A stretch of 51,989 bases of DNA, taken from positions 1 to 51,989 of the IMG/VR virus record IMGVR_UViG_3300031965_000042. One strand, given 5' to 3'. Made by a program: the position numbers and the translations under genes. Source of the stretch: a virus. Lineage: Duplodnaviria > Caudoviricetes. Positions 17,067 to 40,770 of this stretch are shown piece after piece. Position 1 is the first letter of the stretch; each line of letters begins with the position of its first letter. The notes under the pieces are model-generated. The model did not search any database. It was not told where the DNA came from and saw only the letters and a program-made list of their open reading frames with translations.

Positions 17067-17441
17067 ATGACTCTAACGGAAAGTGTGCATGCCGGCGCCT
17101 TCATGGGTGCGTGGCACGCGGGCACGCTGTCGATCGAAAAGGCCACGGTGCTGTCGGGGGAGAACCTGGTCGCCGGCCAGGTGATCAGCCTGAACAACGA
17201 CGGTAAGATCATCGCCCAGGACGGTGAGCTGGCCACCGACGGCTCGTTGGTGACGGCCGCTGCCGGCATTCTGTGGGACAATGTCGATGCCACCGACGGC
17301 GACGTTGCCGATTGCGTTTACGTCGCCCGCTTGGCCGAGGTCAAAGACGACAAACTGACCTATCCCACCGAGAGCACGGCCGGCGGCGAAAAGTCCGCCT
17401 GCCAGGACAGCCTCGCGCTGCTTCATATCCGTCCGCGCTAA
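17067..17441 (+). CDS. head decoration protein (gpD-like)
   Basis: SGENLVAGQVI and AAGILWDNVDATDGD; lies between the protease and the capsid gene. Confidence 0.85.
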   Translation: MTLTESVHAGAFMGAWHAGTLSIEKATVLSGENLVAGQVISLNNDGKIIAQDGELATDGSLVTAAAGILWDNVDATDGDVADCVYVARLAEVKDDKLTYPTESTAGGEKSACQDSLALLHIRPR

Positions 17442-17511: not shown

Positions 17512-18534
17512 ATGTTGACAATGGACGTCTTCCGCCAGGATGCGTTCAGCGCCACCACGATGCTGACGGCCGTCGATAAAGTCGGCTACGTTCCTGGCTT
17601 CCTCGGTTCCATCCCGGGCTTGTTCGAACCGGTGCCGGTGCGCACCAAGGAAATCTACATCGAGAGCCGCGGCACCGAGGCGGCCTTGATCCAGACCACG
17701 CCGCGTGCGTCGGCGATTCCGCAGAAGGCGGACAGCGAACGCGAGGCGCGGCCGTTCTCGACCCGGCGCATCGCGCAGGGCAGCCGCATCATGGCGAACG
17801 AGCTGTTCTCCATTCGCGAGTTCGGATCGGAGACGGAGCTCAAGCAGCTCGTCAGGGAGGTGTCGCGCCGGCAGTTCCTGATCAAGCGTGACTTTGATCT
17901 GACCTTCGAGAATCTGCGTCTCGGATGCGTGCAGGGTCTCGTCGCCGACGCCGACGGCACCACCATCTATGACTGGGAATCGGAGTTCAGCCAGACCATC
18001 CCGGCCGAGGTCGATTTCGATCTCGACAATGCCAACCCGGCATCGGGCGTGTTGCGCAAGGCCTGCACGGCGGCCATGCGTTCCATTACGCGTGGGCTCA
18101 AGGGGATGGGCGGCAACGCAGTGCGCATCATGGCCATCTGCGGCGACAACTTCTGGGACGATCTGACTGCGCATACCGAAGTGCGTACCACCTATCTCAA
18201 CTATGCGGGCGCGGCCGCGTTGCGTGATCCGGTTGCATGGGAGAGCTTCAATTTCGGTGGCATCACCTGGACCAATTATCGGGGAACCGATGACGGGTCG
18301 ACCGTGGCCGTCGGCACCGACAAGGCAAAATTCTTCCCCGTCGGCGCCGGCGTTTTCAAATGGGCGATGTCTCCGGGCGAGGCGTTCGAGCATCTGGGAC
18401 GGCCGGGGCAGATGTTCTATTCGCTGATCGTGCCGGACGAGAAGCGCAACCAATATGCGGATGTCGAAATGTATTCGTATCCGCTGCCCGTCTGCACCAT
18501 GCCGCAGGCGCTCTATCGGGCGCGTCGCACCTAA
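17512..18534 (+). CDS. major capsid protein, gpE family
   Basis: MDVFRQDAFS..., CGDNFWDDL and YSYPLPVCTMPQAL. Strong SD AAGGAG. Confidence 0.93.
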   Translation: MLTMDVFRQDAFSATTMLTAVDKVGYVPGFLGSIPGLFEPVPVRTKEIYIESRGTEAALIQTTPRASAIPQKADSEREARPFSTRRIAQGSRIMANELFSIREFGSETELKQLVREVSRRQFLIKRDFDLTFENLRLGCVQGLVADADGTTIYDWESEFSQTIPAEVDFDLDNANPASGVLRKACTAAMRSITRGLKGMGGNAVRIMAICGDNFWDDLTAHTEVRTTYLNYAGAAALRDPVAWESFNFGGITWTNYRGTDDGSTVAVGTDKAKFFPVGAGVFKWAMSPGEAFEHLGRPGQMFYSLIVPDEKRNQYADVEMYSYPLPVCTMPQALYRARRT

Positions 18535-18563: not shown

Positions 18564-18595
18564 GACCGGGGCGTAAATGCCCGCCCCGGTCTTTT
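18564..18595 (+). terminator. intrinsic terminator or attenuator after the capsid gene
   Basis: GACCGGGGCG-taaatgcc-CGCCCCGGTC-TTTT. The ATG at 18577 sits in the loop. Confidence 0.6.
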
Positions 18596-19284
18596 GGACC
18601 GCCACGCCGGAATGGCAGGGCGAGACCGTCTTTCTTGTGGCCGGCGGTCCCTCGGTGACACAGGCCCATGTCGACAGGCTCAAGGGCTACCGCGTCGTCG
18701 TCGTCAATTCGTCGTTTGAAAAAGCGCCCTGGGCCGACCTGCTGTTCTATGCCGACAAGAGGTGGTGGCACCCGAACGCGGCCAAGGTGCGCAGAATGTT
18801 CAAGGGCAGGGTCATCACCTGCCGGCGTTTCAAGGACAAAGAGGTGGTGCCACCGGGCGTGCTCGCCATCGGCAAGAGCCGTGACAGGTTCTGCGAACGG
18901 CCGAACGAGGTCTACCTGGACAAGACCGTGGTCACCGGCGCGCTTAATCTGATGATGCATTTGGGCGTCGCCTGCGTCGGCATGCTTGGCGTCGACCAGC
19001 AGCGAGACCCGCGCACCAAGCGCATGCACCACCATGAGGAATACACCTTCGCGCTCGGCGCCAAGGTGTTCGAGTTCCAGTCGAAGCAGTTGCGCGCTGT
19101 GGCCGAGCCGTTGGCGCGCGCCGGCATGAAGGTGATCAATCTCAGCCCGGACAGCAAAGTCGATTGGTGGCCGAGAATGACATTGGAGGATTTGCTTGCG
19201 CGAACATCCAAGGTTCACCCCGCGACGTCTGCCGTCGCCGCAAGCGCAATCGTGGCCGAGCAACAGGTGGCAGGGACCGGTTGA
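18577..19284 (+). CDS. Maf/DUF115 (MptE-like, sialyltransferase-like fold) putative glycosyltransferase
   Basis: Motifs TVFLVAGGPSV, VVVNSS..ADLLFYADKRWW, MLGVD and VINLSPDS. Confidence 0.65.
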   Translation: MPAPVFWTATPEWQGETVFLVAGGPSVTQAHVDRLKGYRVVVVNSSFEKAPWADLLFYADKRWWHPNAAKVRRMFKGRVITCRRFKDKEVVPPGVLAIGKSRDRFCERPNEVYLDKTVVTGALNLMMHLGVACVGMLGVDQQRDPRTKRMHHHEEYTFALGAKVFEFQSKQLRAVAEPLARAGMKVINLSPDSKVDWWPRMTLEDLLARTSKVHPATSAVAASAIVAEQQVAGTG

Positions 19285-19936
19285 TGTCTTGTGTCTATTG
19301 CGTGAAAGCAATGAGTTCAGCTCCCGCGATGTCGACCGTCTTTACCGCTCCATTGTCGCAGCGACCGATCGGCGTGTGCGCTTTCATTGCCTGACCGATG
19401 CGAACGGCTTCGGTCCCGGCATTCATGTTATCGCCATCAGGCATCCCGAATGGGAGGCCAAATACAACAAGCTGGAGTTGTTCAGGGCGGACGTGCAGGC
19501 TCTGGGGTCGCGCTTTTTCTATCTCGATCTCGACACGATGATCCTTGGCGGCGTCGACAATCTTTTCAGTTACGACGGCGCGCTGGCGATGCTCGATGAC
19601 TTTTACCTCACACCGAATTTCGGGTCGGGCGTGATGGCGTGGGACTCAAAGATCGGGTCGGGTCTTTACGAAGCCTTCTGCCGCATGCCGGCCGAGCAAC
19701 GTGCGCGCCTCTACCCGCTCGGACGCGGCGGTGGCGACCAGCTCTTTATCCAGCATCATTGCCAGGTCGAGCCGCATCGCTGGCAGACCATGTTTCCGGG
19801 GCGGGTCGTCAGCTACAAGATTCACGTTCGCAGTCACGGTAACCGCATACCCGACGCCGCTTCGGTGCTATGCTTCCATGGACGGCCGAGGATGCGGGAA
19901 GTTGGGCACCTCCTACGCAATGCGGCCGTGGCTTGA
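19196..19936 (+). CDS. GT-A fold glycosyltransferase (GT8-like), paralog 1
   Basis: Motifs FHCLTD, KLELF, FYLDLDT (DxD), GSGVMAW, GDQLFI and CFHGRPR. TTG start after GGAGGA. Confidence 0.8.
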   Translation: MREHPRFTPRRLPSPQAQSWPSNRWQGPVDVLCLLRESNEFSSRDVDRLYRSIVAATDRRVRFHCLTDANGFGPGIHVIAIRHPEWEAKYNKLELFRADVQALGSRFFYLDLDTMILGGVDNLFSYDGALAMLDDFYLTPNFGSGVMAWDSKIGSGLYEAFCRMPAEQRARLYPLGRGGGDQLFIQHHCQVEPHRWQTMFPGRVVSYKIHVRSHGNRIPDAASVLCFHGRPRMREVGHLLRNAAVA

Positions 19937-20660
19937 TCTGCCGCCGGCGCCGAAACAGGCGCCGGCGAAAGACGGGCAGCCGCGACCGACCAATCAGCAT
20001 GCCGGGCCGATCACCATCGCCTGCGTGCTGCGGCGCTCGCCCGAATATGACGCCGAGTGCGTGCGCCGCCTGCAGCGGGCGGTGTCGCGGAATGTGACGA
20101 GACCGTTTCGGTTTGTCTGTCTGACCGACGAGCTCGCTGTCGCCGGCGTGGAGACGATCGCGCTGCGTCATCCCGAATGGGTGACCAAGCAGAGCAAAAT
20201 GGAGTTGTTCAGGCCGGAGCTGGAGCTCGGGCGGGTGTTCTATCTTGATCTCGACACCGTCGTGTGCGGATCGTTGGAGGACATGCTGTCCTACGACGGC
20301 ACGTTCTGCATGCTCGGTGATCTCGGCGGAAAGCCGCAGCAATGTCGCGGCTCCGGTGTGATGGCGTGGGCGCCCGGCTTTGGCGCGGGCATGTATGAGG
20401 CCTTTTGCAAGCTGCCGCCTCATGTGCGCGACACCACCTATCGTGTCGGTGGCGGCCGCTCCGACCAGTTGTTCATCAACCATTTCATGCCGGTGCGGCC
20501 GCACGTCTTCCAGCAATTCTGGCCGGACCAGCTCGCCAGCTACAAATTGCACTGCCGCAGGCGCGGCAGGCCTCCGCACAATGCGAGGATCGTATGCTTC
20601 CACGGCCGGATCAAAATGAGGGAGACGACAGAGAAATGGATATCCGAAACTTGGGCATAA
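19920..20660 (+). CDS. GT-A fold glycosyltransferase (GT8-like), paralog 2
   Basis: Motifs FVCLTD, KMELF, FYLDLDT, GSGVMAW, SDQLFI and CFHGRIK. Confidence 0.8.
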   Translation: MRPWLDLPPAPKQAPAKDGQPRPTNQHAGPITIACVLRRSPEYDAECVRRLQRAVSRNVTRPFRFVCLTDELAVAGVETIALRHPEWVTKQSKMELFRPELELGRVFYLDLDTVVCGSLEDMLSYDGTFCMLGDLGGKPQQCRGSGVMAWAPGFGAGMYEAFCKLPPHVRDTTYRVGGGRSDQLFINHFMPVRPHVFQQFWPDQLASYKLHCRRRGRPPHNARIVCFHGRIKMRETTEKWISETWA

Positions 20661-20676: not shown

Positions 20677-21222
20677 TTGAGCAATGCGGATCTGCTCAAG
20701 ACGCTGACACCTCGCCGGCATGCTGTTCCGCTGGTCTCTATCATCAAGAGCCATCCGACCTGGAAAAAAGGGGCTGAGGTGGGGGTAGCGCAGGGGCGGA
20801 CGTCGCGCGTGATTTTGAAGGAGTGCCCTCAGCTTACGCTCATTGCGGTCGACCCTTTCCGCTACGTGATCGACGCGGAGTCATCCGGGCTCTACCGGGA
20901 TTTCGATTTCGCGCACTGCGAGCGGTGTGTGCGAGCGGTGGCGGCCGAGTTCGCACCCAGGATGATCATAAAGAAAATGACGTCCGAGCAGGCGGCGAGT
21001 TCGATCCCCAAAGGCTCACTGGATTTCGTGTTTATCGACGCCAACCACACATACGCCGAAGTGAAGCGTGACATAGTGGCATGGCGGCCGAAGGTCAGGC
21101 GATGGGGAATGGTGCTCGGGCACGATTATTCGGACCGCTGGCCGGGGGTGAAGCGGGCAGTTAACGAGGTGTTCGGTAAGCCCATTCTATTTGACAGTTC
21201 CATCTGGGGCGTCGTCGTTTGA
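20677..21222 (+). CDS. class I SAM-dependent methyltransferase (Methyltransf_24-like)
   Basis: Motifs GAEVGVAQGRTS, AVDPF, LDFVFIDANHTY, GHDY and WPGVKRAV. Confidence 0.85.
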   Translation: MSNADLLKTLTPRRHAVPLVSIIKSHPTWKKGAEVGVAQGRTSRVILKECPQLTLIAVDPFRYVIDAESSGLYRDFDFAHCERCVRAVAAEFAPRMIIKKMTSEQAASSIPKGSLDFVFIDANHTYAEVKRDIVAWRPKVRRWGMVLGHDYSDRWPGVKRAVNEVFGKPILFDSSIWGVVV

Positions 21223-21827
21223 CTCTGAAAATTCTTGGCATTGGCTTGCCGAAGACGGGCACATCAAGCCTCAACGAGGCGCTGCGGATTCTTCGTTTCA
21301 AGACGTTCCACGCGCCGCGGCATTTCCGCGCGAAGTATTTTAGCTCGCGGTTCGATTTCGGTGAGTGGGATGCGATCTGCAACATGTTCGAGCATGCGTT
21401 TCCGGCCATCGATGCTCTCTATCCGGGCACCCGCTTCATCTACACACGACGCGACGCAGAGAGCTGGCTGCCGTCGGTGCAGCGCGCGTTCCGGCACCTG
21501 GACCGCGTGCAGCAATCGGCCGGCAAGATCATGATCGACCGCCTGCTGGCGCTGCAATGCTCGACCTATAATGAGCCGATCCTGCGCCACGTGCATCGCT
21601 ATCATGCGCAGGCGGTTCGATCCTATTTCGAAGCCCGCAGCCAGGACGTGCTGCATCTCGACATTTGCGCCGGCGAGGGGTGGGAGAAGCTGTGCGCCTT
21701 TCTCGGCGTTGACGTTCCCGATCGGCCCTTCCCGCATCTGAACACCCAAGAGCGCTATTCGTGCGGCGAGCCGGGACATTCATGCTGCATCTGTCATCAC
21801 GGCATTACAGAGGAGGCCGCGGCCTGA
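21219..21827 (+). CDS. PAPS-dependent sulfotransferase
   Basis: GIGLPKTGTSSL is the 5'-phosphosulfate-binding loop. Also FIYTRRDAESWLPS and GWEKLCAFLG..PFPHLN. Confidence 0.88.
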   Translation: MTLKILGIGLPKTGTSSLNEALRILRFKTFHAPRHFRAKYFSSRFDFGEWDAICNMFEHAFPAIDALYPGTRFIYTRRDAESWLPSVQRAFRHLDRVQQSAGKIMIDRLLALQCSTYNEPILRHVHRYHAQAVRSYFEARSQDVLHLDICAGEGWEKLCAFLGVDVPDRPFPHLNTQERYSCGEPGHSCCICHHGITEEAAA

Positions 21828-22495
21828 TGTGGTTTGTGCCAACACGCGGGCGGCCGCATCGCCTGCAGAAATTTCTCGACGGTTGTGTAGACACCGGCAT
21901 GCGCATGCCCGGCCTGGTCGTCGTCGACGGTGAAGATGGCGGCAACTATTCCGAGGTGCGGGTGCCGGGGAATTGGGGACTGATGATCGCCAGGAAACGC
22001 GCCGAGACCTGCGGCCGCATGGAGGAATATTTCAAAGCTTATCCAGATGCGGCGTTCTACGCGATCGTCAATGACGACGTGGTGCCGGAGACATCGGGTT
22101 GGGACGTGACCCTGGCAAAGGCCGCCGGCGACTGGAACGTCGCCTATCCTGATGACACCTTGAATGGCGAGCGCATGGCGACACAGTTTCTTGTCGGCGG
22201 TAAGCTGGCGCGCGCGGTCGGTTCCTTCGGCCTCGGATTCCTGCACACCATGGTCGACCGCGCCTGGATGGACATTGGACGCGGTCTCGATGCCCTGGTC
22301 TATCGCACCGACATCAAGATGCGTCACGATCATTGGAGCGTCGGCCGCGCCGAGAAAGACAAGACCTACCAGCGCACCTTCAACGGTCGCTCGACCATCG
22401 TGCATGACCGTGCGCGCTATCGGGATTTCTGCCGCGAACTGCCGGGTATCCTGGCCAGGGTCAAGGCAATCCGCGACGACCAGGCGGCCGCCTGA
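21827..22495 (+). CDS. GT-A fold glycosyltransferase (GT2-like)
   Basis: Motifs VPTRGRP, VVVDGED, IVNDDVVP and HDHW. Confidence 0.7.
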   Translation: MWFVPTRGRPHRLQKFLDGCVDTGMRMPGLVVVDGEDGGNYSEVRVPGNWGLMIARKRAETCGRMEEYFKAYPDAAFYAIVNDDVVPETSGWDVTLAKAAGDWNVAYPDDTLNGERMATQFLVGGKLARAVGSFGLGFLHTMVDRAWMDIGRGLDALVYRTDIKMRHDHWSVGRAEKDKTYQRTFNGRSTIVHDRARYRDFCRELPGILARVKAIRDDQAAA

Positions 22496-22565
22496 ACCTT
22501 TTTTTTAAGAACTTCCGGGGGGTGAAAGAGGAGCACCCGCCCGCCTCTAACGAGCGGGTGCTCCT

Positions 22566-23996
22566 TTGCTGCTCATCAATCCTCCGTCCAGCTTCCTGCT
22601 GGACGAACGGGTGTTCCCGTCGCTCGGCATTCTCAAAGTGGCGGCCGTGCTCGAACGCGCCGGCCACGCGGTCGAGCTCATCGACCTGGCTGGCGACGAT
22701 GTGCTTGCCGCGCTCAAGGCGCGGCTTGCGCATCCGGCCCCTGCATGCGTGGGCCTGTCGGCGACAACGGCGCAGATGCCTGCGGTGAAGGAGATCGTCG
22801 GCCTGCTGCGCCGCGCCTGGCCGAAAACACGCATCGTGCTTGGCGGTCCGCATGGCACGTTGGCGCTGGCGGCGCGGCGCAAGGAAGCCAAGCGCAATGT
22901 CGTCGGCCGTGGCCACCGGGCGATCGAGCGCCTGGTCCGCATGGTCGATTGCCTGGTCGCCGGCGACGGCGAGCATGCGGTGTTCGCCGCCATGCAGCCG
23001 GACGCGCCGGAGATCGTCGACGCCGATGATCGCAAGAGCGCGCTGTGGATGAAGAACGATCATTATGAGGCAAGCCCGTGGCCGGCACGGCACCTCATCG
23101 ATATTGCGTCCTATCGCTACCAGATCGACGGCCATCGGGCGACCAGCATCATCGGCCAGCTCGGTTGTCCATTCGCCTGTGCGTTCTGCGGTGGCCGCCA
23201 TGCGCATTCCCTGCGGGTGATACGCACGCGATCAACCGGCAACATCGTCGGCGAAGTGCGGCACCTTTATGAGGAGCACGGATTCACCGGCTTCATGTTC
23301 TACGACGATGAGCTCAACGTCTCGCCGGCGCTGGTGGAAATGTGTGAGGCGTTGACGGACCTGCAGGAGGAGCTGGGCGTTTCTTTCGGCCTGCGCGGAT
23401 TCATCAAGGCGGAGCTGTTCAACGAGGACCAGGCCAGGGCGATGCGACGCGCCGGCTTCCGCTGGCTTCTGTGCGGCTTTGAGGCCGCCGACGATCGCAT
23501 TCTGATCAATATCGCCAAGCGTGCGACCAGGGCCGACAACGATCGCGTCCTCGAGCTCGCCGGCAGGCACGATCTCAAGATCAAGGCGCTGATGTCGGTC
23601 GGCCATGCCGGCGAGAGCGAGGCGAGCGTGCGCGCGGTGCGTAACTGGCTGCTCGATGTGGCGCCGGCGGATTTCGATTGCACCATCATCACACCCTATC
23701 CCGGCACGCCCTATCACGACGACGCCGAGCCTGCCGGTAACGATGTGTGGACATACACGCAGCCGGTGACGGGTGATCGCTTGCATGCGCGGGAAATCGC
23801 CTACGAGGAAAACGCCGACTATTACAAGGGAATCCCCGGCGAATATGTCAGCCATGTCTTCACCGACCATCTGTCGGCCGAGGATCTGGTGCGCTTGCGC
23901 GACGAGCTGGAGCGCGAGGTGCGCGGCCGCCTGAACATTCCCTATCCGAGCGCCGCGCCGGCGCAGCAATTCGAGCACTCGATGGGTCAAACATGA
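22566..23996 (+). CDS. B12-binding radical SAM enzyme (class B methyltransferase-like)
   Basis: Motifs LLINPP, PSLGILKVAA, VLGGPHGT, GDGE, GCPFACAFC (CxxxCxxC), FYDDE and TPYPGTP. Confidence 0.92.
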   Translation: MLLINPPSSFLLDERVFPSLGILKVAAVLERAGHAVELIDLAGDDVLAALKARLAHPAPACVGLSATTAQMPAVKEIVGLLRRAWPKTRIVLGGPHGTLALAARRKEAKRNVVGRGHRAIERLVRMVDCLVAGDGEHAVFAAMQPDAPEIVDADDRKSALWMKNDHYEASPWPARHLIDIASYRYQIDGHRATSIIGQLGCPFACAFCGGRHAHSLRVIRTRSTGNIVGEVRHLYEEHGFTGFMFYDDELNVSPALVEMCEALTDLQEELGVSFGLRGFIKAELFNEDQARAMRRAGFRWLLCGFEAADDRILINIAKRATRADNDRVLELAGRHDLKIKALMSVGHAGESEASVRAVRNWLLDVAPADFDCTIITPYPGTPYHDDAEPAGNDVWTYTQPVTGDRLHAREIAYEENADYYKGIPGEYVSHVFTDHLSAEDLVRLRDELEREVRGRLNIPYPSAAPAQQFEHSMGQT

Positions 23997-25180
23997 GAGT
24001 CATGATTCTGGGCGGGCAGGGTTACCTCGGCTGGCCGTCGGCGATGCATCTGGCTTCGATCGGGCATGAGGTCACGATCGTCGACAACGGTCTTAAATCG
24101 CGCCTGACGCAGGAGACCGGTGACTTCTCGCTCACCCTCGTGCAGCCGGCGAAGGTGCGCGCGGCCATCTTCCATGAATGCACCGGCGTCTGGATCGAGA
24201 GCGTAGGCGGAGACGTCACCGACTACGGGCAGATGTGTGTGCTGCTCAAGCGCTTCGCGCCGGATGCGATCGTGCACTATGCCGAGATCCCGTCGGCGCC
24301 GTTCTCGATGCGTGACTATGAGGCTGCGCGGCTCACCGTCATCAACAATGTCGGCGCCACGCTCGCGCTGGCGCATGCCGTCAAGGAGTGCTGCCCCGGC
24401 GCGCATATCATCAAGCTGGGAACGATGGGCGAGTACGGAACGCCGAATGTGCCCATCAGCGAAGGCTGGCTCGAGCACCAGCACAACGGATACGCGCAAA
24501 AATTCCTTTATCCGGCGACACCGGGCTCGCTCTACCATGTAAGCAAGGTGCAGGACACGCACGTGCTCTGGCTTTACAGCCGCATGTATGGCTTGCGCGT
24601 CACCGATGTCATGCAGGGTCCGGTCTACGGGCTGACAACGCCGCAGATCGAGCTACACGAGGATTTGGCCACCAGCTTCTATTACGACGATCTGTGGGGC
24701 ACCGTGATCAACCGCTTCGTGGTGCAGGCGCTCATCGGCGAGCCGCTGACCGTCTACGGGTCCGGCGGACAAAAGCGCGGCTTCATCAATCTGCGTGATG
24801 TGGTCAAGTGCATCGAGTTGATGCTGGCCAACCCGCCGGCCGGTGAAGATTATCGCATCTTCAACCAGATCACCTCGGTGCACTCCGTGAAGGGCCTCGC
24901 CGATCTCGTTGTGCGCGCATGCTCCTCTGTGGGCGTCAACGCTCAGGTCGGCGAGGTCCGAAACCCGCGACAGGAGGCGGAAGATCATTTCTATTCGGTC
25001 GAGGCGACCGGCTTGCGCGATCTCGGGCTCGAGCCGACCCAGCTCAACGAGGAGACACTGGCCGAGTTCATCGAGGCTGTGCGGGTCCATATCGGGCGTG
25101 TGAACCGTCAGCGCATTCTGCCGCGCAACGGCTGGACGGCATTCTACACGGACGCCGTTGACGACGCCGCGGCCGCCTGA
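23993..25180 (+). CDS. sqdB: UDP-sulfoquinovose synthase-like extended SDR (SqdB/SQD1/Agl3 family)
   Basis: Motifs GGQGYLGWP, SAPFSM, KLGTMGEYGTPN, YHVSK, GTVINRF..PLTVYGSGGQKRG and NPRQEAEDHFY. Confidence 0.88.
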   Translation: MRVMILGGQGYLGWPSAMHLASIGHEVTIVDNGLKSRLTQETGDFSLTLVQPAKVRAAIFHECTGVWIESVGGDVTDYGQMCVLLKRFAPDAIVHYAEIPSAPFSMRDYEAARLTVINNVGATLALAHAVKECCPGAHIIKLGTMGEYGTPNVPISEGWLEHQHNGYAQKFLYPATPGSLYHVSKVQDTHVLWLYSRMYGLRVTDVMQGPVYGLTTPQIELHEDLATSFYYDDLWGTVINRFVVQALIGEPLTVYGSGGQKRGFINLRDVVKCIELMLANPPAGEDYRIFNQITSVHSVKGLADLVVRACSSVGVNAQVGEVRNPRQEAEDHFYSVEATGLRDLGLEPTQLNEETLAEFIEAVRVHIGRVNRQRILPRNGWTAFYTDAVDDAAAA

Positions 25181-25524
25181 TGGGATGGCAGACGGCGCTC
25201 GACGCCCTCTATGCGAATGCGAGCCTCGGTGTGGCGGCCACGCTCGACATTGGTGATACCGCCTCGCCCTACGACCTGACCGTTATCGACAAGACCGAGG
25301 GCGTATCCATCGACCAGGGCGGCGTCGATCTGCAGTCGGTGACGCCGGCGGCAACGTTGCGCGTCAGCGAACTCAGCGATCTCGGTCTGGAGCGCGGCGA
25401 CCTCGTCGACGGCACGATGGTGTTCAACGGCGGGTCTTGGGTCGTCACCGCGACCAGACCGCGGCCGATGCCCGACAATGATGGTGAGCTGCTGCTCCTG
25501 CTGCGGCAATCGGAGGCGACATGA
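25180..25524 (+). CDS. head-tail joining protein (gpFII-like)
   Basis: Size, position and ALDALY..LGVAATL...LERGDL pattern. Confidence 0.65.
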   Translation: MGWQTALDALYANASLGVAATLDIGDTASPYDLTVIDKTEGVSIDQGGVDLQSVTPAATLRVSELSDLGLERGDLVDGTMVFNGGSWVVTATRPRPMPDNDGELLLLLRQSEAT

Positions 25525-31080: not shown

Positions 31081-31512
31081 ATGAGCGATGACACGCTGCT
31101 GCGCCTCACCGGCCTCGGTATCCCGCCCTATTCGGCGCGCGGCATCGTCGAGACCCTGACGCCGATCGACCAGCAGGGATTCTTCGCCCGCTCCATCACC
31201 AGCGGCACCTTGCTCAATCTCGGTCTGAGCGACCTGCAGAAATACCGCATTCGCCTGGAGGCCGAAGACATTCGGCCGCCGGCCTTCGAGGCGATGTGGC
31301 GTGGCACCGAGCTGGAGGTGGAGCTGACCACGGTGCTGGCCGTGGAAGGGTCGGCGGCGCCGTCAAAGCCCTATGTCGAGGGCAGCGTCGAGGAGGCCGA
31401 CGGCTTCACCCGCTACCGGCCGAAGCTCGACGTCATGGTGGTCGATTTCTCCTTGCAGAACGACGAATGGGAGGCCTTGCGCCGATGGTCGCTCACGCTT
31501 GAGGAGATCTGA
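31081..31512 (+). CDS. distal tail protein-like
   Basis: Directly after the tape measure. GIPPYSARGI..TL and WSLTLEEI. Confidence 0.6.
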   Translation: MSDDTLLRLTGLGIPPYSARGIVETLTPIDQQGFFARSITSGTLLNLGLSDLQKYRIRLEAEDIRPPAFEAMWRGTELEVELTTVLAVEGSAAPSKPYVEGSVEEADGFTRYRPKLDVMVVDFSLQNDEWEALRRWSLTLEEI

Positions 31513-33332
31513 TGCTGACCTTCGCCTGGGTCGATGCGGATGAGGCCGACTTTCTGCCCGAACATGCGCGCGCTGATCTGGAGATCGTCAGCGTCGTCAT
31601 CGCGCAGGAGGAGGGCCAGTTCGCGGAGGCTATTCTGACCGTCAAGAATCCGCGCGTGGGTCTGCTGTCGCCGGGGCGAAAAGTGTGGGCGTGGATCGGC
31701 TGGGACGATGACGACACCGCGGCGGTGCCGTTGTTCTTCGGTCACTTGCGCGCCTGGCCGACGGATTTTCTGGCCGATGCCGTCGACCTGCAATTCCTCG
31801 CCGAGCCGGATGATTTCCTGGAGCAGAAGCAGGCCGTCGCCGCTGCGCTCAAGGAGTTCCCCTTCTACGATCCGATCTGGTTCGGCGAGGAGGACCGCGA
31901 CGATGCCGACGCCATCATTCAGGCGCGCACCGTCGCCTGGCATATCGACCGCACGTCGCTCACCGTCTCGGTCTCCGATCTCGTCGCCGGCGAGGACGGC
32001 ACACTCATCATTCCGACCGAGCACGAAGGCTTCGACCAATCTCTCAACGGCCAGTTCGTGGCGCTGCCCAAAAGCAGCATCAGGGTCACCGCCGATGTCT
32101 ATTGGCGGCAGCACGCGGCGGGCTCCGTCGACGTGTCGCCGCGCTTCGTGCAGGCGGCCGCCGCCGCCGGGTCTCAATATGGTTTGATCCAGACCTATAC
32201 CGGCGAAGGCCTGTTGCGGGACATACCGAAAAAGAGCCAGGCCATCGGCAGCGGCTGGCGATGGGGCGACATGTTCGTGGTGCGCGGTGAAAAGAAATTC
32301 CTGCCGGAGGAGTTTGAGCAGGTCGAGATCACCGGAAAATATTCGTGGTATATCAATTTTCCGCTGTGGAGCTTCAAGCCTGACTTCAATGTCGAGTATG
32401 AGGTCGATCGTTCCTTCCAGGAGCGCGTGACCTTCACGCTGACGGCGGACATTCAGGCTTTGCCCGGACGCCCCGACGAACCGATCGAGCTCGATTTGTC
32501 GTCGCGCTATGTCGGCGAGCCGGTCGACGATCCCGACACGACCAGCACCGCCGGAGACAAGGATGTGCCGATCGGCGATCTGCGCAGGCGCAGCTATTTC
32601 CAGACGGCGCGCGGGCAGCAGTCGATCGACTACCTGATGATGCTGGCGGCGGCCGATCTGATCAGCCGCGCGCGCGCGGTCCTGGTGCAATGCGACATTA
32701 CGCTGCGCGACGGGTTCGGGCTTTCCTTGCGCAAATCGGCGACGATCACCACGCCGCGCCTTCCGGGCGGCACTGCTACCGGCAAGATCGTGGCTTACCA
32801 GATCATCGCCGACGGCGTCACCGGCACCAATCTGGCCAGGCTCACCATCGCCTGCACGATCGGCCATGATGGCAGCGTGGCGCCGAGCGCCGGCACGCCG
32901 GTCTGGGTGTCGGCCGATTGGGTCGAGCCTGGCTGGCAGGTCTATCAGGGGCAGCAGATGCAGCCGTCGGATGACGTCGAGGTCTATTGGGAGATCGACG
33001 ATCTGATCAAGGAGCCGGACGACGACGGTGTGGATTTTTACAATCTCTCCTACGCCAACGTGTTCGATGAGGACACGACGTTCGGCGGTCTGCAAATGGT
33101 CAACGGGCGCACGGCGCAGGAGGAGCTCATTCAGGCTTTGCGCGGCGGCACGCCGCTTGTCTATTCGCCGGCGCCGACCGATCCGATGCAGGCGCTCAAC
33201 GCGCTCAACGAAGTCTACAGCCAGTTCCATGGACAACTGATCAAGCTCCGAAAGGATCCGTTTCTGACCGAATACGAGCTGACCGTTTCCGAACTGGACG
33301 TGCCCAAGACCATCGATCTTGAGGCGGCATGA
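31512..33332 (+). CDS. tail tip or hub protein
   Basis: 606-aa acidic ORF in the tail tip position, coupled on both sides. Confidence 0.6.
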   Translation: MLTFAWVDADEADFLPEHARADLEIVSVVIAQEEGQFAEAILTVKNPRVGLLSPGRKVWAWIGWDDDDTAAVPLFFGHLRAWPTDFLADAVDLQFLAEPDDFLEQKQAVAAALKEFPFYDPIWFGEEDRDDADAIIQARTVAWHIDRTSLTVSVSDLVAGEDGTLIIPTEHEGFDQSLNGQFVALPKSSIRVTADVYWRQHAAGSVDVSPRFVQAAAAAGSQYGLIQTYTGEGLLRDIPKKSQAIGSGWRWGDMFVVRGEKKFLPEEFEQVEITGKYSWYINFPLWSFKPDFNVEYEVDRSFQERVTFTLTADIQALPGRPDEPIELDLSSRYVGEPVDDPDTTSTAGDKDVPIGDLRRRSYFQTARGQQSIDYLMMLAAADLISRARAVLVQCDITLRDGFGLSLRKSATITTPRLPGGTATGKIVAYQIIADGVTGTNLARLTIACTIGHDGSVAPSAGTPVWVSADWVEPGWQVYQGQQMQPSDDVEVYWEIDDLIKEPDDDGVDFYNLSYANVFDEDTTFGGLQMVNGRTAQEELIQALRGGTPLVYSPAPTDPMQALNALNEVYSQFHGQLIKLRKDPFLTEYELTVSELDVPKTIDLEAA

Positions 33333-33781
33333 ACTTTTTTCCAAAATATGGTGTGCCCGGTCGAGGTGCCGCCATCCTACAGCGACAGCAGCCGCTTTTC
33401 GTCAAGCATGTGGCGCGTGCTCTGGTCACGCGATCGCAGCTTGTGCTCGAGCGCCTGATCTCCAACCGCATCGGCGAAAGCGATCTGGAGGAGACCGAGT
33501 TCGTGTTCGGTCAGCCCTCGAATTTTTCTCTGATCGCGGCGGCCGAGGAGCCGCAGGTCACCGTCAATTTTCCCGATGAAACACCGCCTCCGGATGAGGT
33601 CGAGGTGATCGAATACGATGAGGTGTGGCGCCAATACGAGACGGTGCGCGTGGAGAACCCTGACGACGAGGATCAATACATCGAGGAGGAGCGCAGTCTT
33701 AAGGTGCGCTTCGTGCGTCAATCGGATGGCAAGTTCATCCAGCTCAATCTGAGATACGACGGACCGGCGACGGAAGTCTGA
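33329..33781 (+). CDS. putative virion protein
   Basis: Coupled ORF with TVRVENPDDEDQYI motif. Confidence 0.55.
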   Translation: MNFFPKYGVPGRGAAILQRQQPLFVKHVARALVTRSQLVLERLISNRIGESDLEETEFVFGQPSNFSLIAAAEEPQVTVNFPDETPPPDEVEVIEYDEVWRQYETVRVENPDDEDQYIEEERSLKVRFVRQSDGKFIQLNLRYDGPATEV

Positions 33782-34530
33782 TGCCGTTCGGTGGTGGGAA
33801 CAATCCCCCGGTCCGCATCGATCCGTTCAAGGACATCGTGAATGTCCATTGGGGCATCCCCTTTGTGTATGTCGCGCTGCAGCGGTCGCTTGCCTCCACG
33901 GAAGCCTTTTCCAGCGGCACATTTCCTTTCGGCGAGCCGATCTCCGGAAGTTTTTCGAATGCATATTTGGATACGACCACCATCGTATCCGATTCCAGGC
34001 CGCCGAGCGGCGCGGAGTTTCCCTTCATCGCCTCCGCCTTTGTGTGGAAAGGCGAGGAGACCGGATGGGTGCAGATACCGGCCGCCGATAGCACCGGCTC
34101 CGAGCTCGATTTCGCCGGCATACCCGAGTTCAGCCACGCCGACACGTATGGGGCATGGGATTTCGTCAGTACTGGGAATCCGGATGTGCCAAGCTCCACC
34201 TCGCCGCGGCTTGGTACTGAGCAGCTCGGCGGGGAGGCTCTCCCCGAGAATTTTCCCAAACTTGGTGGCAGTCCCTTCGTTGATTCCCTGCAGATACGCC
34301 TCTTCGTGGAGGCCATCGTGCCGGAAGAGTTGTTGCAGGAAGACCCGGTGCCGCCGGAGCCTGACGGCCCCGACTTCGCCAACTTTCCGTCGGCGACACA
34401 CGAGGAGACGGGTGTCTCCTATGTCATCGACTATTCCGGGGCGAGCCTGACCTACAAGGGCCACGCCTATGACGCTGTCGGCATGCAGGCGGGCTTCTTT
34501 CTTCTTTTTGCCAGATCGGAGGCGACCTGA
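33781..34530 (+). CDS. putative virion protein
   Basis: Coupled ORF with VRIDPFKDIVNVHW N-terminus. Confidence 0.55.
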   Translation: MPFGGGNNPPVRIDPFKDIVNVHWGIPFVYVALQRSLASTEAFSSGTFPFGEPISGSFSNAYLDTTTIVSDSRPPSGAEFPFIASAFVWKGEETGWVQIPAADSTGSELDFAGIPEFSHADTYGAWDFVSTGNPDVPSSTSPRLGTEQLGGEALPENFPKLGGSPFVDSLQIRLFVEAIVPEELLQEDPVPPEPDGPDFANFPSATHEETGVSYVIDYSGASLTYKGHAYDAVGMQAGFFLLFARSEAT

Positions 34531-35102
34531 TGGTCGACATTCGCTTTGTCGATCCTGACTTCGGCGGCGATACAGTCCCGCACACGCGCAAGCAGGCCGA
34601 CCAAAACAATTTTAATCTCAAGGAGGCGATTGAGACTATTGAGGCAGCCCTGCCGGGACAGCCCTATCAGATCACGCTCGTCACCCAGGTCGACGATCTC
34701 TTTTATCTGCACCTGTCGGATGGCGAGACCGTGCTCGGTCCCATCACCATCCCGCGTTCGATCCCGGCCACCGTGGTTACCGTCAGCGCCGCGGCCTATA
34801 CGCCAGCACTGGGCGAGGCCAATTCCTATTTCCGCGGCGCCAATGCCGGAGGGCTCGCCTTCACCATCCCGGATGAATCGACGGTCAACTATCCCGTCGG
34901 CACCTGGTTCGGTTTCTATCAGGCGGCGCCGTTGCCGGTGACGCTGATCGAAGGGGCGACGGCGGTGGTGTTCAACCTGCCGACCGGCAAGGCGGCGGAG
35001 ACGGCGGAACAGGGCGCCTTCATTCTGGCCAAGAAGGTCGCCACCGATGAATGGGACGTGATCGGCTGGCTGGCTGATGCGAGCACGGGCACCGCGACCT
35101 GA
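34530..35102 (+). CDS. putative tail fibre or adaptor protein
   Basis: QADQNNFNL N-terminus and C-terminal VNYPVGT...KKVATDEWDVIG. Confidence 0.6.
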   Translation: MVDIRFVDPDFGGDTVPHTRKQADQNNFNLKEAIETIEAALPGQPYQITLVTQVDDLFYLHLSDGETVLGPITIPRSIPATVVTVSAAAYTPALGEANSYFRGANAGGLAFTIPDESTVNYPVGTWFGFYQAAPLPVTLIEGATAVVFNLPTGKAAETAEQGAFILAKKVATDEWDVIGWLADASTGTAT

Positions 35103-35776
35103 TGGCGGAGGAAATGATCTTCGCCGCCGGCGCCATGCAGATGTTGATGGAGGAGGCGGCCGCCTATCCCGGCGCGCTTGCCTATATGGATTTCATCGCC
35201 GGCATCTATGCCGTCGGCGATACCGAATTGACGGCGAGCGATGTGGTCGATTCGCCAGGCCTGATCGGAGCGGCTGGCTTGGCCGTGCCGGCGGCCGACA
35301 CGCCGCCGGAGATCATCGGCGCCATGCTGGCGGCGCTCGGCGACGCCATCGAGGACATGACGCTGCTCGTGGAGTGGACGGACTTCGACGGCAACGATCA
35401 TTATCCTTTCTACCTGACCAGCGACCCGCCGTCCTGGTCCTATACGTGCTCGCTGTTCCTGGACAAATCGGCACCGCTGCTCATCCCGTTCTTCAACGAC
35501 AACTCGACGTCGGCGCGCAGCATCTTCTCGTTCTCCGCGATCGCGGTGGGGACGCATCGCGCAGCCCTGACCAGAAAGACGGAGCGGCTCGCCGGCTCGA
35601 TCGACGGTGCGACGGTGGAGACGAAGGAGCAGGCGGCCGCCGGTCCGTTCACGCTGACGCGCGGTGCCTTCGGCGGCTTGCCGGGGGACACCACGGCGGC
35701 CGCGCTCTATGTGCGCAAGTTCATCCTCTATTCTTCAATGGCCGACGCGCAGCTCCCCGCGCTGTCGGTGATTTAG
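35102..35776 (+). CDS. putative virion protein, beta-sandwich (LamG-like)
   Basis: HRAALT..GSIDG..RKFILYSSMADAQL pattern. Confidence 0.5.
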   Translation: MAEEMIFAAGAMQMLMEEAAAYPGALAYMDFIAGIYAVGDTELTASDVVDSPGLIGAAGLAVPAADTPPEIIGAMLAALGDAIEDMTLLVEWTDFDGNDHYPFYLTSDPPSWSYTCSLFLDKSAPLLIPFFNDNSTSARSIFSFSAIAVGTHRAALTRKTERLAGSIDGATVETKEQAAAGPFTLTRGAFGGLPGDTTAAALYVRKFILYSSMADAQLPALSVI

Positions 35777-35787
35777 GAGCTGCCCAG

Positions 35788-36102
35788 ATGGCAAACGTCA
35801 AGATTGCGTTCACCAAGGCCGTCCTGAAGACGCATATGGTTCCGGTGGTGCAGGGCGACAGCGTGCGCAGTGAAATCCTGGCCACGGCCACCGACAGCGT
35901 GCAGAGCACGTTGCAGGCGGCCGACGGCGAAAACATCATGACCGTCATCGCCGACGATGACGTGTGGGTGGCGATCGGCACCAACCCCACAGCCGCCAAC
36001 GATCTGGCCACCGGCGACGAGCATATCGCCTCGCATTTCTGCAAGGCGAACATCCAGCGCGAGTTCTGGGTTGAGACCGGCTACAAGATCGCGGTGATCT
36101 GA
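35788..36102 (+). CDS. small virion protein
   Basis: SD AGGAG and DVWVAIGTNPTA motif. Confidence 0.65.
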   Translation: MANVKIAFTKAVLKTHMVPVVQGDSVRSEILATATDSVQSTLQAADGENIMTVIADDDVWVAIGTNPTAANDLATGDEHIASHFCKANIQREFWVETGYKIAVI

Positions 36103-37172
36103 TGCGCTTGGGTCTCGGGTTTGGATTCCAGGCCGGCGCTGGTCAGGGTATCGACGAAACCGCGATCGCGATCGCCTGGGCGGCAGGACATGAAAATGGT
36201 GTCTTTGCCGAGGACGACGCGCCCGGCACGGTAATCGGCACGCTGTCTGGCGGTGACGGATCGAACTACTCATTGTCGGACGACGCTGACGGCAAGGTCG
36301 CGCTGAGCGGCGCTAACGTGATTGTCGGCGTTGGTAGTCTCTTGGCCGGAAGCTATGAGTTCGTCGTGACGAGCGGGGAGCAGAGCAACGCCGTTGGATT
36401 CGAGATACTGATCTACGAGGCGAACTCGGTCAGCTTTGATGGCGTGAACGACTATCTGACGCGCGACGGTGGTCTTACGGGAGCGGTGGACAGCAAGAAG
36501 TTGACGCTGGTCTTCTTCATCCGGAAGCAGGGATCGGATGACAGTTCCGAGCGTTTGTTCGTTGGAGCGACTACGCTGGGCGGAACGACTGAGAGATTCA
36601 GGTGCGTCAAAGCTAGCGGAAATACTATAGCGTTGGTGGGGTTCAACGCAGCAGATTCTCAGATACTCAGCATTCAGGCAAGTGGTGGTGCAGTGGAGGT
36701 GGCGGACGGATGGGTGCCGGTCTTGATCGCCGTTGATATGTCGGACGTGAACAAGCGTCACCTCTATATCGGTGATACACTCGATCTGAGCGTGAGTGTT
36801 TATAACGATGACACGTTCGACTTTACTCTCGCAGACTGGTGTATTGGCGCGCGATCTGATGGTCTCAACAAGATTGAGGCCGATTTCACGCATTTCTGGT
36901 TCATGCCTGGTTTGTACATAGATTTCAGTTTGGAGAGCAACCGAAGGAAGTTTCTTACGCCCGACGGGCGACCAGCCTTCTTGGGCGCGAGTGGGGAGTA
37001 TCCGACCGGCACGCCCCCATTGGTCTACATGAGTGGTGCTACGGATACGTGGCACGTCAACGATGGTTCCGGCGGCGGATTTACAGAGAATGGTGCGCTA
37101 ACTGACGGCGGTGACGCCGGGACTGCCGGTCAACCAATCGGTCTTCTTTTGACACTTACAAAGGCATCTTGA
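36102..37172 (+). CDS. virion protein with cadherin-like and LamG/concanavalin-like domains
   Basis: EDDAPGTVIGTLS..YSLSDDADG, then SVSFDGVNDYL and NRRKF..GRP. Confidence 0.6.
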   Translation: MRLGLGFGFQAGAGQGIDETAIAIAWAAGHENGVFAEDDAPGTVIGTLSGGDGSNYSLSDDADGKVALSGANVIVGVGSLLAGSYEFVVTSGEQSNAVGFEILIYEANSVSFDGVNDYLTRDGGLTGAVDSKKLTLVFFIRKQGSDDSSERLFVGATTLGGTTERFRCVKASGNTIALVGFNAADSQILSIQASGGAVEVADGWVPVLIAVDMSDVNKRHLYIGDTLDLSVSVYNDDTFDFTLADWCIGARSDGLNKIEADFTHFWFMPGLYIDFSLESNRRKFLTPDGRPAFLGASGEYPTGTPPLVYMSGATDTWHVNDGSGGGFTENGALTDGGDAGTAGQPIGLLLTLTKAS

Positions 37173-37173
37173 G

Positions 37174-38028
37174 ATGGCGGATAATGTAGCAATCACGGCG
37201 GGTTCGGGCACCACAATTGCTGCTGACGACATCGGCGGCGTTCTCTACCAGCGCGTAAAGCCCGTGCATGGTGCTGACGGCACGGCCACAGACACAAGTG
37301 CTGCGGCCCCGCTCCCAGTCTCTGATGCTACTGCGATCACGGAGCTTCAGAGCCTCGTCACGGCGTTGGAGACGGCGCGACTGGCGGTAAACCTCGTTGT
37401 TGGTGAAGCTGGAGCCGCTGGCGGTGCTGGCGCGACCGGCACAGACACACTTCGCATTGTCACCGCCGAAGACGATGCACTTGTCGATGCTATCAAAACC
37501 GCCGTTGAAGCTATTCAGGCAGTAGCGGAATCCACCACGCCGACGTCCATCGCCACGCGCAGCGAGGGCGCCGTGGTATCCCTGACCACTCCGACCGGTG
37601 CACTTGCCGATGGCGATGTGATGGCGGCCACGCAGGAGATTGCAAGCTTCTTCACCGAAAATGGCGGCCGGGGCGTCCTCCAGTCCGTCGTAGCCATCGA
37701 TACGGATGACCAGGGCGTTGCTTTCGATCTGGTCTTCTTCAACGCCAACACGTCGCTCGGCGCCGAAGACAGCGCACCGGACATTGACGATACCGAAGTT
37801 CTCACTGTGCTTGGCGTTGTCAGCATTGGCGTGACCGATGAGGCCTCTCCGAACCACTCGCCGTGGGTTGATCTCGGGGCGAACCGCGTTGCGACGCGCA
37901 CGGGCGTTGCCCTGCACATGGAGGCTGGCGCGGCAACAACCTCCGTGTGGGTTGCTGCGATCACGCGGGGGACGCCAACCTACGCAAGCGGCGTGGTGAC
38001 GGTGAAGCTCGGCTTCTTGCAGGACTAA
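37174..38028 (+). CDS. putative virion structural protein
   Basis: MADNVAITAGSGTTIAADDIGGVLYQRVK N-terminus; Ala/Thr/Val-rich. Confidence 0.6.
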   Translation: MADNVAITAGSGTTIAADDIGGVLYQRVKPVHGADGTATDTSAAAPLPVSDATAITELQSLVTALETARLAVNLVVGEAGAAGGAGATGTDTLRIVTAEDDALVDAIKTAVEAIQAVAESTTPTSIATRSEGAVVSLTTPTGALADGDVMAATQEIASFFTENGGRGVLQSVVAIDTDDQGVAFDLVFFNANTSLGAEDSAPDIDDTEVLTVLGVVSIGVTDEASPNHSPWVDLGANRVATRTGVALHMEAGAATTSVWVAAITRGTPTYASGVVTVKLGFLQD

Positions 38029-38033
38029 AGCAC

Positions 38034-40631: not shown

Positions 40632-40665
40632 CGACGCTCGAATGGTGGCCGTCGCTGTTTATCGG

Positions 40666-40770
40666 TTAATGTAGCACCAATGCGCTGATCCAAGCCCACA
40701 GAACCCAGACCCACAGCGTTGCCGCGGTGAGACCGAGGGCTTTGAAAAGCACGGTGCGCAGCGCAACCAT
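40666..40770 (-). CDS. possible 34-aa single-TM peptide
   Basis: MVALRTVLFKALGLTAATLWVWVLWAWISALVLH*, read by hand; too short for the ORF track. Confidence 0.35.
   Translation of the reverse strand: MVALRTVLFKALGLTAATLWVWVLWAWISALVLH

Follow-up and report, generated by a model that had tools for sequence, protein, structure and literature searches.

The window analyzed here, i.e., the whole 51,989 nucleotides (52 kb) of the IMG/VR virus record IMGVR_UViG_3300031965_000042, has direct terminal repeats and a CheckV completeness of 100%, and holds, between its capsid gene (stop at 18534) and its head-tail attachment gene (start at 25180), a block of eight genes whose junctions are tight or overlapping. 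The block begins 43 nt past the capsid gene stop and encodes four glycosyltransferase (GT) homologues, a methyltransferase, a sulfotransferase, a B12-binding radical S-adenosylmethionine (SAM) enzyme and, as its last member, a homologue of the UDP-sulfoquinovose synthases SQD1, SqdB and Agl3, with which this text is mainly concerned. As the start of the head-tail attachment gene overlaps the stop of the SQD1-like gene, the “cassette” lies inside the late structural operon. The window matches PHROG families for the small and large terminase, portal, protease, decoration protein, gpE-type capsid, tail tube, tape measure and endolysin, and, the record being both complete and equipped with structural genes, the label “phage-encoded” that the preliminary description had attached to the SQD1-like gene is borne out. 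The large terminase shares 50% identity with its counterpart in Aurantimonas phage AmM-1 and 40% with the one in a Rhizobium phage, which, together with a G+C content of 60–69%, suggests an alphaproteobacterial host, albeit as a guess; no match was obtained when 25 kb of the window were compared by megablast with 50,697 phage records.

The SQD1-like open reading frame (ORF) encodes a full-length member of the SQD1/SqdB/Agl3 family with intact catalytic residues. Its translation contains KLGTMGEYGTPN, YHVSK, PLTVYGSGGQKRG, NPRQEAEDH and EIPSAPFSM, so that all four motifs of the SQD1 “signature set” claimed beforehand are indeed there. In a search of all PDB chains, three SQD1 sequences rank first at E about 1e-100 (Arabidopsis SQD1, 1qrr_A, reaches 7.7e-101, with residues 2–382 of the query aligned to 3–383 of the chain), and the next family, UDP-glucuronate decarboxylase, follows at E 1.2e-11 over a 76-residue fragment. 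Pfam recognizes Epimerase (6e-25) plus GDP_Man_Dehyd, and the NCBIfam model NF041015, “UDP-sulfoquinovose synthase”, is matched over the whole profile (E 1e-119), with a score of 400 bits that falls below the 575 cut-off. This miss carries low weight, since the model is geared to proteins of the Agl3 type (a Sulfolobales control genome gives 641 bits, and only 1 of 14 control genomes rises above the cut-off), and it was dropped as evidence against family membership. Among 18 aligned sequences, the GxxGxxG NAD site is kept, with G7, G10 and G13 invariant, and the equivalents of SQD1/Agl3 H95, T145, M145, E147, Y148, S180, Y182, H183 and K186 are all retained as invariant or near-invariant residues; in the phage numbering, T144, Y181, H182, K185, H95, E147 and Y148 are invariant and M145 is nearly so. 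The mutational importance of the catalytic positions is described for Agl3 in PMC4388408. The glycine-loop motif reads LGTMGVYGYSG in the SqdB of Sinorhizobium meliloti and Marinovum and GTMGEYGTPN/S in the cyanobacterial, Sulfolobales and plant forms, and the earlier statement that GTMGEYGTPN belongs to the latter set, as opposed to the alphaproteobacterial GTMGVYGY, agrees with the sequences sampled.

The alignment with 1qrr, a structure with NAD and UDP-glucose bound, places the SQD1 segment “eqrsapysm” opposite “eipsapfsm” of the phage protein and SQD1 Arg101 opposite Pro100, confirming the loss, noticed at the outset, of an arginine to which the preliminary description assigns a putative part in sulfite binding. 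Because Pro100 replaces Arg101 of the EQRSAP loop, the phage protein is filed here, by its sequence, as a homologue in an uncharacterised “Pro-type” branch rather than as a proven synthase. The position reads P in 236, R in 28 and T in 1 of 265 sequences, proportions that are biased and not valid for the family at large, as similarity to the phage protein was what decided which sequences entered the sample. Arginine is found in all 13 cyanobacterial, both sqdBDC-type alphaproteobacterial and all seven crenarchaeal sequences as well as in plant SQD1, that is, in every sampled member of the lineages whose activity has been established genetically or biochemically, and proline in the phage, the clade of the phage, a 113-leaf bulk of metagenome hits and a 68-leaf clade of genes from archaeal and bacterial metagenome-assembled genomes (MAGs). 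At the 80% level, the types are told apart by no more than two columns, 96 (Phe in the Arg type, Tyr in the Pro type) and 100 itself. The Agl3 R101A mutant is inactive, according to PMC4388408, and the exchange is, therefore, not trivially neutral. The column is, at the same time, evolutionarily restless: R, P and H alternate among 22 Chloroflexota genes collected with one Pro-type query (44–55% identical to it), and Fitch parsimony on a 288-leaf tree requires at least six changes of state.

The closest match to the phage protein among 5.8 billion proteins is 56% identical. Translated searches (tblastn) of the ORF against the 50,697 phage records retrieved 13, all generic short-chain dehydrogenases/reductases (SDRs) of 23–27% identity, and no isolated phage in that collection has the gene; IMG/VR, on the other hand, contributed 72 loci encoding SQD1 relatives, plus two from a single-sequence scan. 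For the phylogeny (FastTree, LG+gamma, midpoint root, 265 distinct sequences, seven rows with internal stops having been removed before alignment), the reference set comprised SqdB of S. meliloti, Marinovum and Loktanella (sqdB-GT8-SDR operons), 13 cyanobacterial sequences, Sulfolobales and a Pseudonocardia plasmid gene. The phage protein falls into an 11-leaf clade (support 0.98) of seven metagenome proteins, its own included, and four viral loci. A separate 20-leaf clade (support 0.9) unites the Arg-type enzymes of cyanobacteria, alphaproteobacteria and actinobacteria, and its alphaproteobacterial sub-clade (support 1.0) includes the viral locus L002 and excludes this phage, the phylogenetic check against host-type SqdB thus showing no nesting. 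Identity to the phage protein is 40–42% for alphaproteobacterial SqdB, 42–44% for cyanobacterial and 40–45% for Sulfolobales sequences, and 47% for a Melainabacteria MAG. No value above 47% came from 185,579 species genomes that were scanned with a motif-guided search, which sees only sequences carrying two clade motifs. The proposal that the gene was “acquired from outside the host lineage” can thus be kept as far as it sets the gene apart from the alphaproteobacterial SqdB type (in identity, loop and clade alike); its other half, the host lineage, is a guess made from the terminase.

Whether such an enzyme would serve a lipid or a glycan was judged by its neighbors. A tblastn search of the window at E<=1, for which SqdD, SqdC and sqdX-like GT4 supplied two query proteins each, revealed no GT4 and no SqdC; the sole hits, both weak, were an SqdD match at 19460-19753 (103 residues within the first GT8-like gene, E 0.002) and a hit on the Rossmann N-terminus of the SQD1-like ORF itself. 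The first GT8-like protein of the cassette (paralogue a) is 31% identical to Marinovum SqdD over 86 aa (BLASTP, E 1e-5), and a profile comparison with hhalign is likewise weak (probability 61%, E 8e-5, 94 columns around the DxD and DQxF motifs). The statement that “sulfolipid partner genes” are missing, consequently, stands for sqdX and sqdC, although two of the cassette GTs do have the GT8 fold, to whose family SqdD belongs. When five Chloroflexota sqdX-like GT4 probes were used (E<=1e-15, at least 200 residues aligned, within 1.5 kb), a GT4 neighbor was detected at 18 of 43 cellular Arg-type genes (12 of 13 cyanobacterial ones), three of four His-type genes and none of the four viral Arg-type genes, and at none of the 75 cellular and 69 viral Pro-type genes.

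The surroundings of the 75 cellular Pro-type genes (L085-L156) were surveyed by clustering the ORFs within 5 kb, called by our own longest-ORF script, and annotating a single representative of each cluster. The recurrent companions are a phosphodiesterase/pyrophosphatase-like protein of PF01663 (58 loci), thioredoxin (51), a small GT2 (36) and an NAD epimerase (28), and genes of sulfur metabolism occur as well, namely, those for phosphoadenosine phosphosulfate (PAPS) reductase (7), a CysN/EF-Tu-like GTPase (6) and ATP sulfurylase (4). ATP sulfurylase, CysN and PAPS reductase with thioredoxin form the classical route from sulfate to sulfite. The phosphodiesterase–thioredoxin pair seen beside the Pro-type gene in archaeal and bacterial MAGs may, as an aside, be a sulfite-delivery device. 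In Chloroflexota, four of five Pro-type genes (L259, L260, L263 and L280) directly adjoin polysaccharide genes (UDP-GlcNAc 2-epimerase, UDP-glucose dehydrogenase, Bac_transf, Wzz, DegT), the fifth (L278) having housekeeping neighbors, and the Arg-type genes have a GT4 neighbor in 6 and a monogalactosyldiacylglycerol-synthase-like gene in 1 of 12 cases; within L259-L280, R and H forms tend to adjoin GT4 and P forms polysaccharide genes. Given the absence of GT4 pairing at 1.5 kb and the polysaccharide neighbors, the Pro-type branch is, judging by gene neighborhoods, a glycan-cluster branch. The idea that the phage gene “feeds a non-lipid glycan” gains from this as well as from its being the last gene in a block with four GTs, a methyltransferase and a sulfotransferase. 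The accompanying suggestion of a possibly “altered chemistry” does not hold up as a phage-specific change, as proline is common to 236 of the 265 sequences and the column has shifted at least six times; sulfite chemistry is probably retained in Pro-type enzymes, considering the alternation of R, P and H, the sulfite-supply neighbors of the cellular genes and the conservation of the other residues tested in Agl3.

The cassette is not peculiar to this phage. The order GT8-like (one or two copies), Methyltransf_24, (sulfotransferase), GT-A, SQD1-like was found in five other lineages (L004/L005, L006, L007/L008, L009 and L285-L289) at 34–67% protein identity, all of their SQD1-like genes being Pro-type, and L285-L289 also share the Maf-like GT in first place with the window. 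In L005 and L006, the major head protein gene (phrog_3437) and one unknown gene precede the cassette, which in L005 is followed by tail tubular proteins A and B in a T7-like layout; in L007/L008, head closure Hc1, neck, tail terminator, major tail and tape measure genes follow it; and in L287 it is preceded by portal, protease, decoration and two uncalled ORFs and followed by Hc1, tail terminator, major tail and chaperone genes. It, hence, sits between head and neck/tail genes in five of six lineages, the window included, and amid at least three different virion gene sets, which on this comparative evidence makes it a mobile cassette that keeps its place. The genes and features of the window's own copy are compiled in Table 1.

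Table 1. Genes and sequence features of the cassette and its borders in the window.
Feature	Position	Strand	Remarks
Major capsid protein (lambda gpE type)	17512..18534	+	Pfam Phage_cap_E 7e-65; phrog_29 major head protein
G+C-rich hairpin, then TTTT, directly 3' of the capsid gene	18564..18595	+	overlaps the first ATG of the next ORF; stem scored on the - strand in the scan
Maf/CstII-like glycosyltransferase (MptE-like superfamily)	18577..19284	+	phrog_4603 1.7e-25; real start perhaps further downstream
GT8-like (glycogenin/LgtC fold) glycosyltransferase, paralogue a	19286..19936	+	phrog_1962 5e-33
GT8-like glycosyltransferase, paralogue b	19920..20660	+	phrog_1962 1.5e-34; start inferred from the homology range
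Class I SAM methyltransferase	20677..21222	+	Pfam Methyltransf_24 2.6e-17
Sulfotransferase (PAPS-dependent type)	21219..21827	+	Pfam Sulfotransfer_4 3e-32
GT-A glycosyltransferase, virus-dominated family	21827..22495	+	phrog_14945 1.4e-23; Atlas start at residue 23
Short hairpin + T8 in the 70-nt gap (the only one in the cassette) 5' of the radical-SAM gene	22481..22507	+	weaker than the capsid-side hairpin
B12-binding radical SAM enzyme (sugar C-methylase or dehydratase-like)	22566..23996	+	Pfam B12-binding 1.4e-15, Radical_SAM 1.1e-16
SQD1/SqdB/Agl3-family sugar-nucleotide enzyme, Pro-type branch	23993..25180	+	ATG start, 395 aa; ATG overlaps the radical-SAM stop (ATGA)
Head-tail attachment protein	25180..25524	+	Pfam Phage_attach 2.7e-8; start overlaps the SQD1-like stop

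The hairpin behind the capsid gene is probably a leaky, terminator-like element, although terminator-like sites in the window do not exceed those in shuffled sequences overall (5 vs. a mean of 5.7), the same being true of promoter counts, so that both hairpins are to be taken as sequence features only. PF01973 is matched by three of five aligned homologues of the Maf-like ORF and not by the protein of the window itself, whose structural model (pLDDT 78) has CstII (1.2e-4) and Maf 5mu5 (2e-4, TMq 0.63) as its best Foldseek matches; viral contigs yielded no close relatives of it, and the 5.8 billion proteins three distant homologues. The two GT8-like paralogues are 46% identical to each other, and the GT8-like model (pLDDT 87) is nearest in Foldseek to LARGE1, Skp1 alpha-GalT, glycogenin, LgtC and GlyE (E 7e-8 to 2e-6). 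It may be added that the GT8-like genes (window 20001-20660) are 31–32% identical to P1 PmgQ and P7 HdmD, both annotated with a “putative morphogenetic function”, and P1-type phages may use a related transferase in particle morphogenesis. The Methyltransf_24 gene probably encodes a sugar O-methyltransferase. As for the GT-A gene, the Atlas clusters of its family are 92–96% viral (one is 12% GT2); it is 56–67% identical in L005-L009 and, in the other cassettes, stands immediately 5' of the SQD1-like gene.

In this window, that place is taken by the radical-SAM gene, which is confined to this cassette and absent from the five other lineages, and the NCBIfam matches of which all lie far under the cut-offs (BchE 109 of 481, AprD4 72 of 500). 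Its relatives were seen at 77 IMG/VR loci (L180-L256; 37–59% identity, contigs of up to 393 kb), none of which adjoins an SQD1-family gene, nine adjoining a generic SDR (25–31% identity) and eight a methyltransferase-like stretch. These loci, hence, show no conserved pair of radical-SAM and SQD1-like genes, and the radical-SAM family looks, from these contexts, like a widespread and uncharacterised viral sugar-tailoring enzyme.

From what is observed directly, i.e., the family membership and catalytic residues of the SQD1-like protein and the make-up, conservation and position of the cassette, the reading tentatively preferred here is that of a mobile virion-glycosylation cassette, which brings the enzyme for its own sulfo-sugar donor, is transcribed with the head genes and gives the particle an anionic coat. 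We infer the product of the enzyme, the order of the steps, the use of the donor by particular GTs and the acceptor as follows. The phage enzyme, being NAD-dependent, would make UDP-sulfoquinovose from UDP-glucose and sulfite supplied by the host, the SQD1-like gene thereby serving as the donor-making member of a cassette expressed with the head genes. The four GTs, the O-methyltransferase and the sulfotransferase, the last of these drawing on host PAPS, would assemble and trim a short glycan that bears sulfonate, sulfate and methyl groups, with the methyltransferase tailoring or capping the chain and the B12-radical-SAM enzyme joining in the building or trimming in this phage only. The most likely carrier of this glycan, as an anionic sugar coat, would be a virion protein, in the first place that of the capsid or the decoration protein (gene at 17067-17441). 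Glycosylation of a virion protein is favored because the cassette recurs between head and neck/tail genes, and a protein-linked glycan because glycogenin, Skp1 GalT, GlyE and Maf are among the structural neighbors of the GT models.

Several points weigh against this. The cassette of L009 sits amid replication genes (a Dda-like helicase, Sak4, a ParB-methyltransferase and DNA polymerase), and in approximately 30 other viral loci (L025-L072), a large group of related contigs, the Pro-type gene stands alone among genes for dCMP deaminase, DNA ligase, polymerase and primase, a placement for which a DNA-linked or general metabolic role would be the better fit. The cassette has no sulfite-supply gene of its own; Ser/Thr-rich acceptor tags, looked for in 20 structural ORFs, gave nothing convincing. 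Some GT4-family gene is, furthermore, to be found within 5 kb in 10 of the 75 cellular Pro-type loci, and the deep nodes of the tree are weak (support 0.12–0.6). The arginine whose mutation inactivates Agl3 (R101A; PMC4388408) is the very residue exchanged here, so that proline could mean a different reaction or substrate, and the literature searched shows no experiment on any Pro-type enzyme.

The donor enzyme and cassette might be just what they are proposed to be and the acceptor, nevertheless, a different one: a glycan of the host envelope (lipopolysaccharide, capsule, exopolysaccharide or a lipid carrier), modified late in infection to mask receptors and so spare progeny from being lost on debris, or to alter the surface of the infected or lysogenic cell. 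That cellular Pro-type genes lie within polysaccharide clusters, that the GT8 relatives include LgtC, a lipo-oligosaccharide enzyme, and that CstII is a lipo-oligosaccharide sialyltransferase all speak for such an acceptor. Pfam and PHROG scans, however, found no flippase, polymerase, Wzz, initiating phosphoglycosyl transferase or membrane protein in the cassette, and lysogenic conversion is without basis, as library scans recognized no integrase or repressor among the 57 ORFs of the window. A host-envelope acceptor would, moreover, leave the repeated head-neck placement unexplained, and it is, thus, regarded as unlikely, if still worth serious consideration.

A second alternative, doubtful to a similar degree, concerns the enzyme instead of the acceptor: the Pro-type protein may not be a UDP-sulfoquinovose synthase at all but act on another substrate (e.g., UDP-GlcNAc), stop at the 5,6-ene or 4-keto stage or employ another nucleophile, the radical-SAM enzyme then remodeling the sugar. 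The universality of arginine in the sampled validated lineages, the inactivity of Agl3 R101A and the release of UDP-glucose-5,6-ene by Agl3 when sulfite is withheld (both from PMC4388408) fit this, as do the division of the types by just the columns 96 and 100 and the overlap of the radical-SAM stop with the SQD1-like start. All the other residues tested in Agl3 are, however, retained, thioredoxin, PAPS reductase and ATP sulfurylase genes adjoin cellular Pro-type genes, the radical-SAM gene is missing from the other five cassette lineages, and the alternation of R, P and H with at least six changes looks more like tolerated change than like a new enzyme. A bolder version, in which altered chemistry is combined with a coated virion, is that the Pro-type branch, including its virus-only clade, makes another nucleotide sugar, such as an N-acetylated or C6-modified sulfo-sugar, which the radical-SAM enzyme alters further, and that podoviruses and siphoviruses alike have placed a horizontally mobile “kit” for an anionic glycan shield beside the capsid gene, so that the virion would bear a new sulfonated, sulfated and methylated chain; this is considered improbable, a shade more so than the change of enzyme chemistry taken by itself.

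The cassette could also decorate the phage DNA, with glycosylated, hypermodified bases serving against restriction, and it is here that the L009 arrangement and the lone-gene loci mentioned above are most relevant. A dCMP deaminase cluster lies within 7 kb in 22 of those approximately 30 loci, and the window itself encodes a dNMP phosphatase-like protein and a ParB-methyltransferase. The gene order at the lone-gene loci (e.g., L046:3580-12732 and L043:8106-16155) is DNA ligase, exonuclease, Sak4-like, (dCMP deaminase), SQD1-like, ParB-methyltransferase, DNA polymerase and primase, and no GTs were called near the lone Pro-type gene in L025-L072. At L002 (1994-12441), an Arg-type homologue of alphaproteobacterial style (GTMGVYGYGG loop) adjoins a 5-hydroxymethyldeoxyuridine (5-hmdU) DNA kinase domain protein, a thymidylate-synthase homologue and a weak GT4-like gene, which suggests either a thymidine-hypermodification cluster, and as such would fit a DNA target, or a sulfolipid auxiliary gene. 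Placement of the cassette in the late structural operon, rather than with replication genes, is, however, what the window and four other lineages show, there is no base-hydroxymethylase or kinase among the ORFs of the window, and the cassette GTs have structural neighbors that act on proteins, glycans and lipids, with none of the known DNA GTs among them; modification of DNA by the cassette is, therefore, judged quite improbable. The idea of an auxiliary metabolic gene (AMG) that raises the sulfoquinovosyldiacylglycerol of the host by providing UDP-sulfoquinovose to host SqdD or SqdX, for which the membership of the enzyme in the family of the sulfolipid head-group synthase and the possible presence of sqdBDC in a probable alphaproteobacterial host could be adduced, is disfavored to the point of near-dismissal, as the phage gene lies outside the alphaproteobacterial SqdB group, no Pro-type locus has an adjacent sqdX-like GT4, and the gene is inherited together with GTs and tailoring enzymes of its own, among which it is embedded.

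Elsewhere in the window, the early region encodes a ParB-like/DNA-methyltransferase fusion (1471-3213), a DHH phosphoesterase (3183-4079) and the dNMP-phosphatase-like protein (4761-5504), which hint, by homology, at a nucleotide-pool or DNA-modification activity apart from the cassette. Ten large ORFs 3' of the tape measure gene (31512-40393) and the sole long minus-strand ORF (40659-41822, 387 aa) are without a PHROG match, and six ORFs of this set, when compared with Pfam, were without a match there too.

Sulfoquinovose is known from the lipids of photosynthetic membranes and from a few archaeal N-glycans; the N-glycan of Thermoplasma acidophilum is reported to bear 6-C-sulfofucose. Should the virion-glycosylation reading prove true, the glycosylation of virions would extend from actinobacteriophages to phages of proteobacteria, sugars with carbon-bonded sulfonate would be added to its repertoire, and the production of sulfo-sugars by viruses would constitute a small and so far unnoticed input to the organosulfur cycle. 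The analysis also exposes a large Pro-type branch of the SQD1 family that appears tied to glycan rather than lipid clusters. The literature searched holds no description of the sulfo-sugar cassette, its capsid-side place or the Arg/Pro split, and none of the papers listed for bacterial polysaccharides containing sulfoquinovose was relevant.

Among the known systems, plant SQD1 (1qrr/1i24), cyanobacterial SqdB and Sulfolobus Agl3 (EC 3.13.1.1) resemble the phage enzyme in full-length homology, the NAD motif, the catalytic Thr/Tyr/Lys, the His after the Tyr and the GTMGEYGTPN loop, and Agl3 would be alike also in working in a glycan rather than a lipid setting; the phage enzyme differs in its proline in place of an arginine invariant in all three, in the lack of an sqdX partner and in an identity of 42–44% to the cyanobacterial and 40–45% to the Sulfolobales forms. 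The sqdB-sqdD-sqdC sulfolipid operon of alphaproteobacteria (S. meliloti, Rhodobacterales) likewise combines an SQD1-family gene with a GT8-type GT (the weak SqdD match), but its enzyme is Arg-type with a GTMGVYGYSG loop and it has SqdC, whereas the phage has four GTs and tailoring enzymes and no SqdC.

Virus-borne, like the present gene, is a putative UDP-sulfoquinovose synthase that Mara et al. 2020 (PMC7785012) describe for a Mu-like virus from the Cariaco Basin and read as an AMG boosting host N-glycosylation. Both are SQD1-family genes discussed in connection with glycosylation, but what that report says of its own is that of a single gene, with no cassette, capsid-adjacent position or Arg/Pro distinction. 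A parallel in gene arrangement is seen in the mycobacteriophages: those of cluster O (Corndog gp35-38) have an O-methyltransferase and three GTs inside the structural operon, according to PMC4351075, and Che8-type (cluster F1) capsids are reported as glycosylated in PMC11256854, which cites Freeman 2023. An O-methyltransferase and several GTs within or beside the structural operon are, thus, shared, and modification of the capsid has been proposed or reported there, whereas here it is predicted from the genes. The host phylum (here probably Alphaproteobacteria) and the GT families are different as well, and the cassette of this phage adds to such a set the enzyme for an activated sugar of its own, a sulfotransferase and a radical-SAM enzyme.

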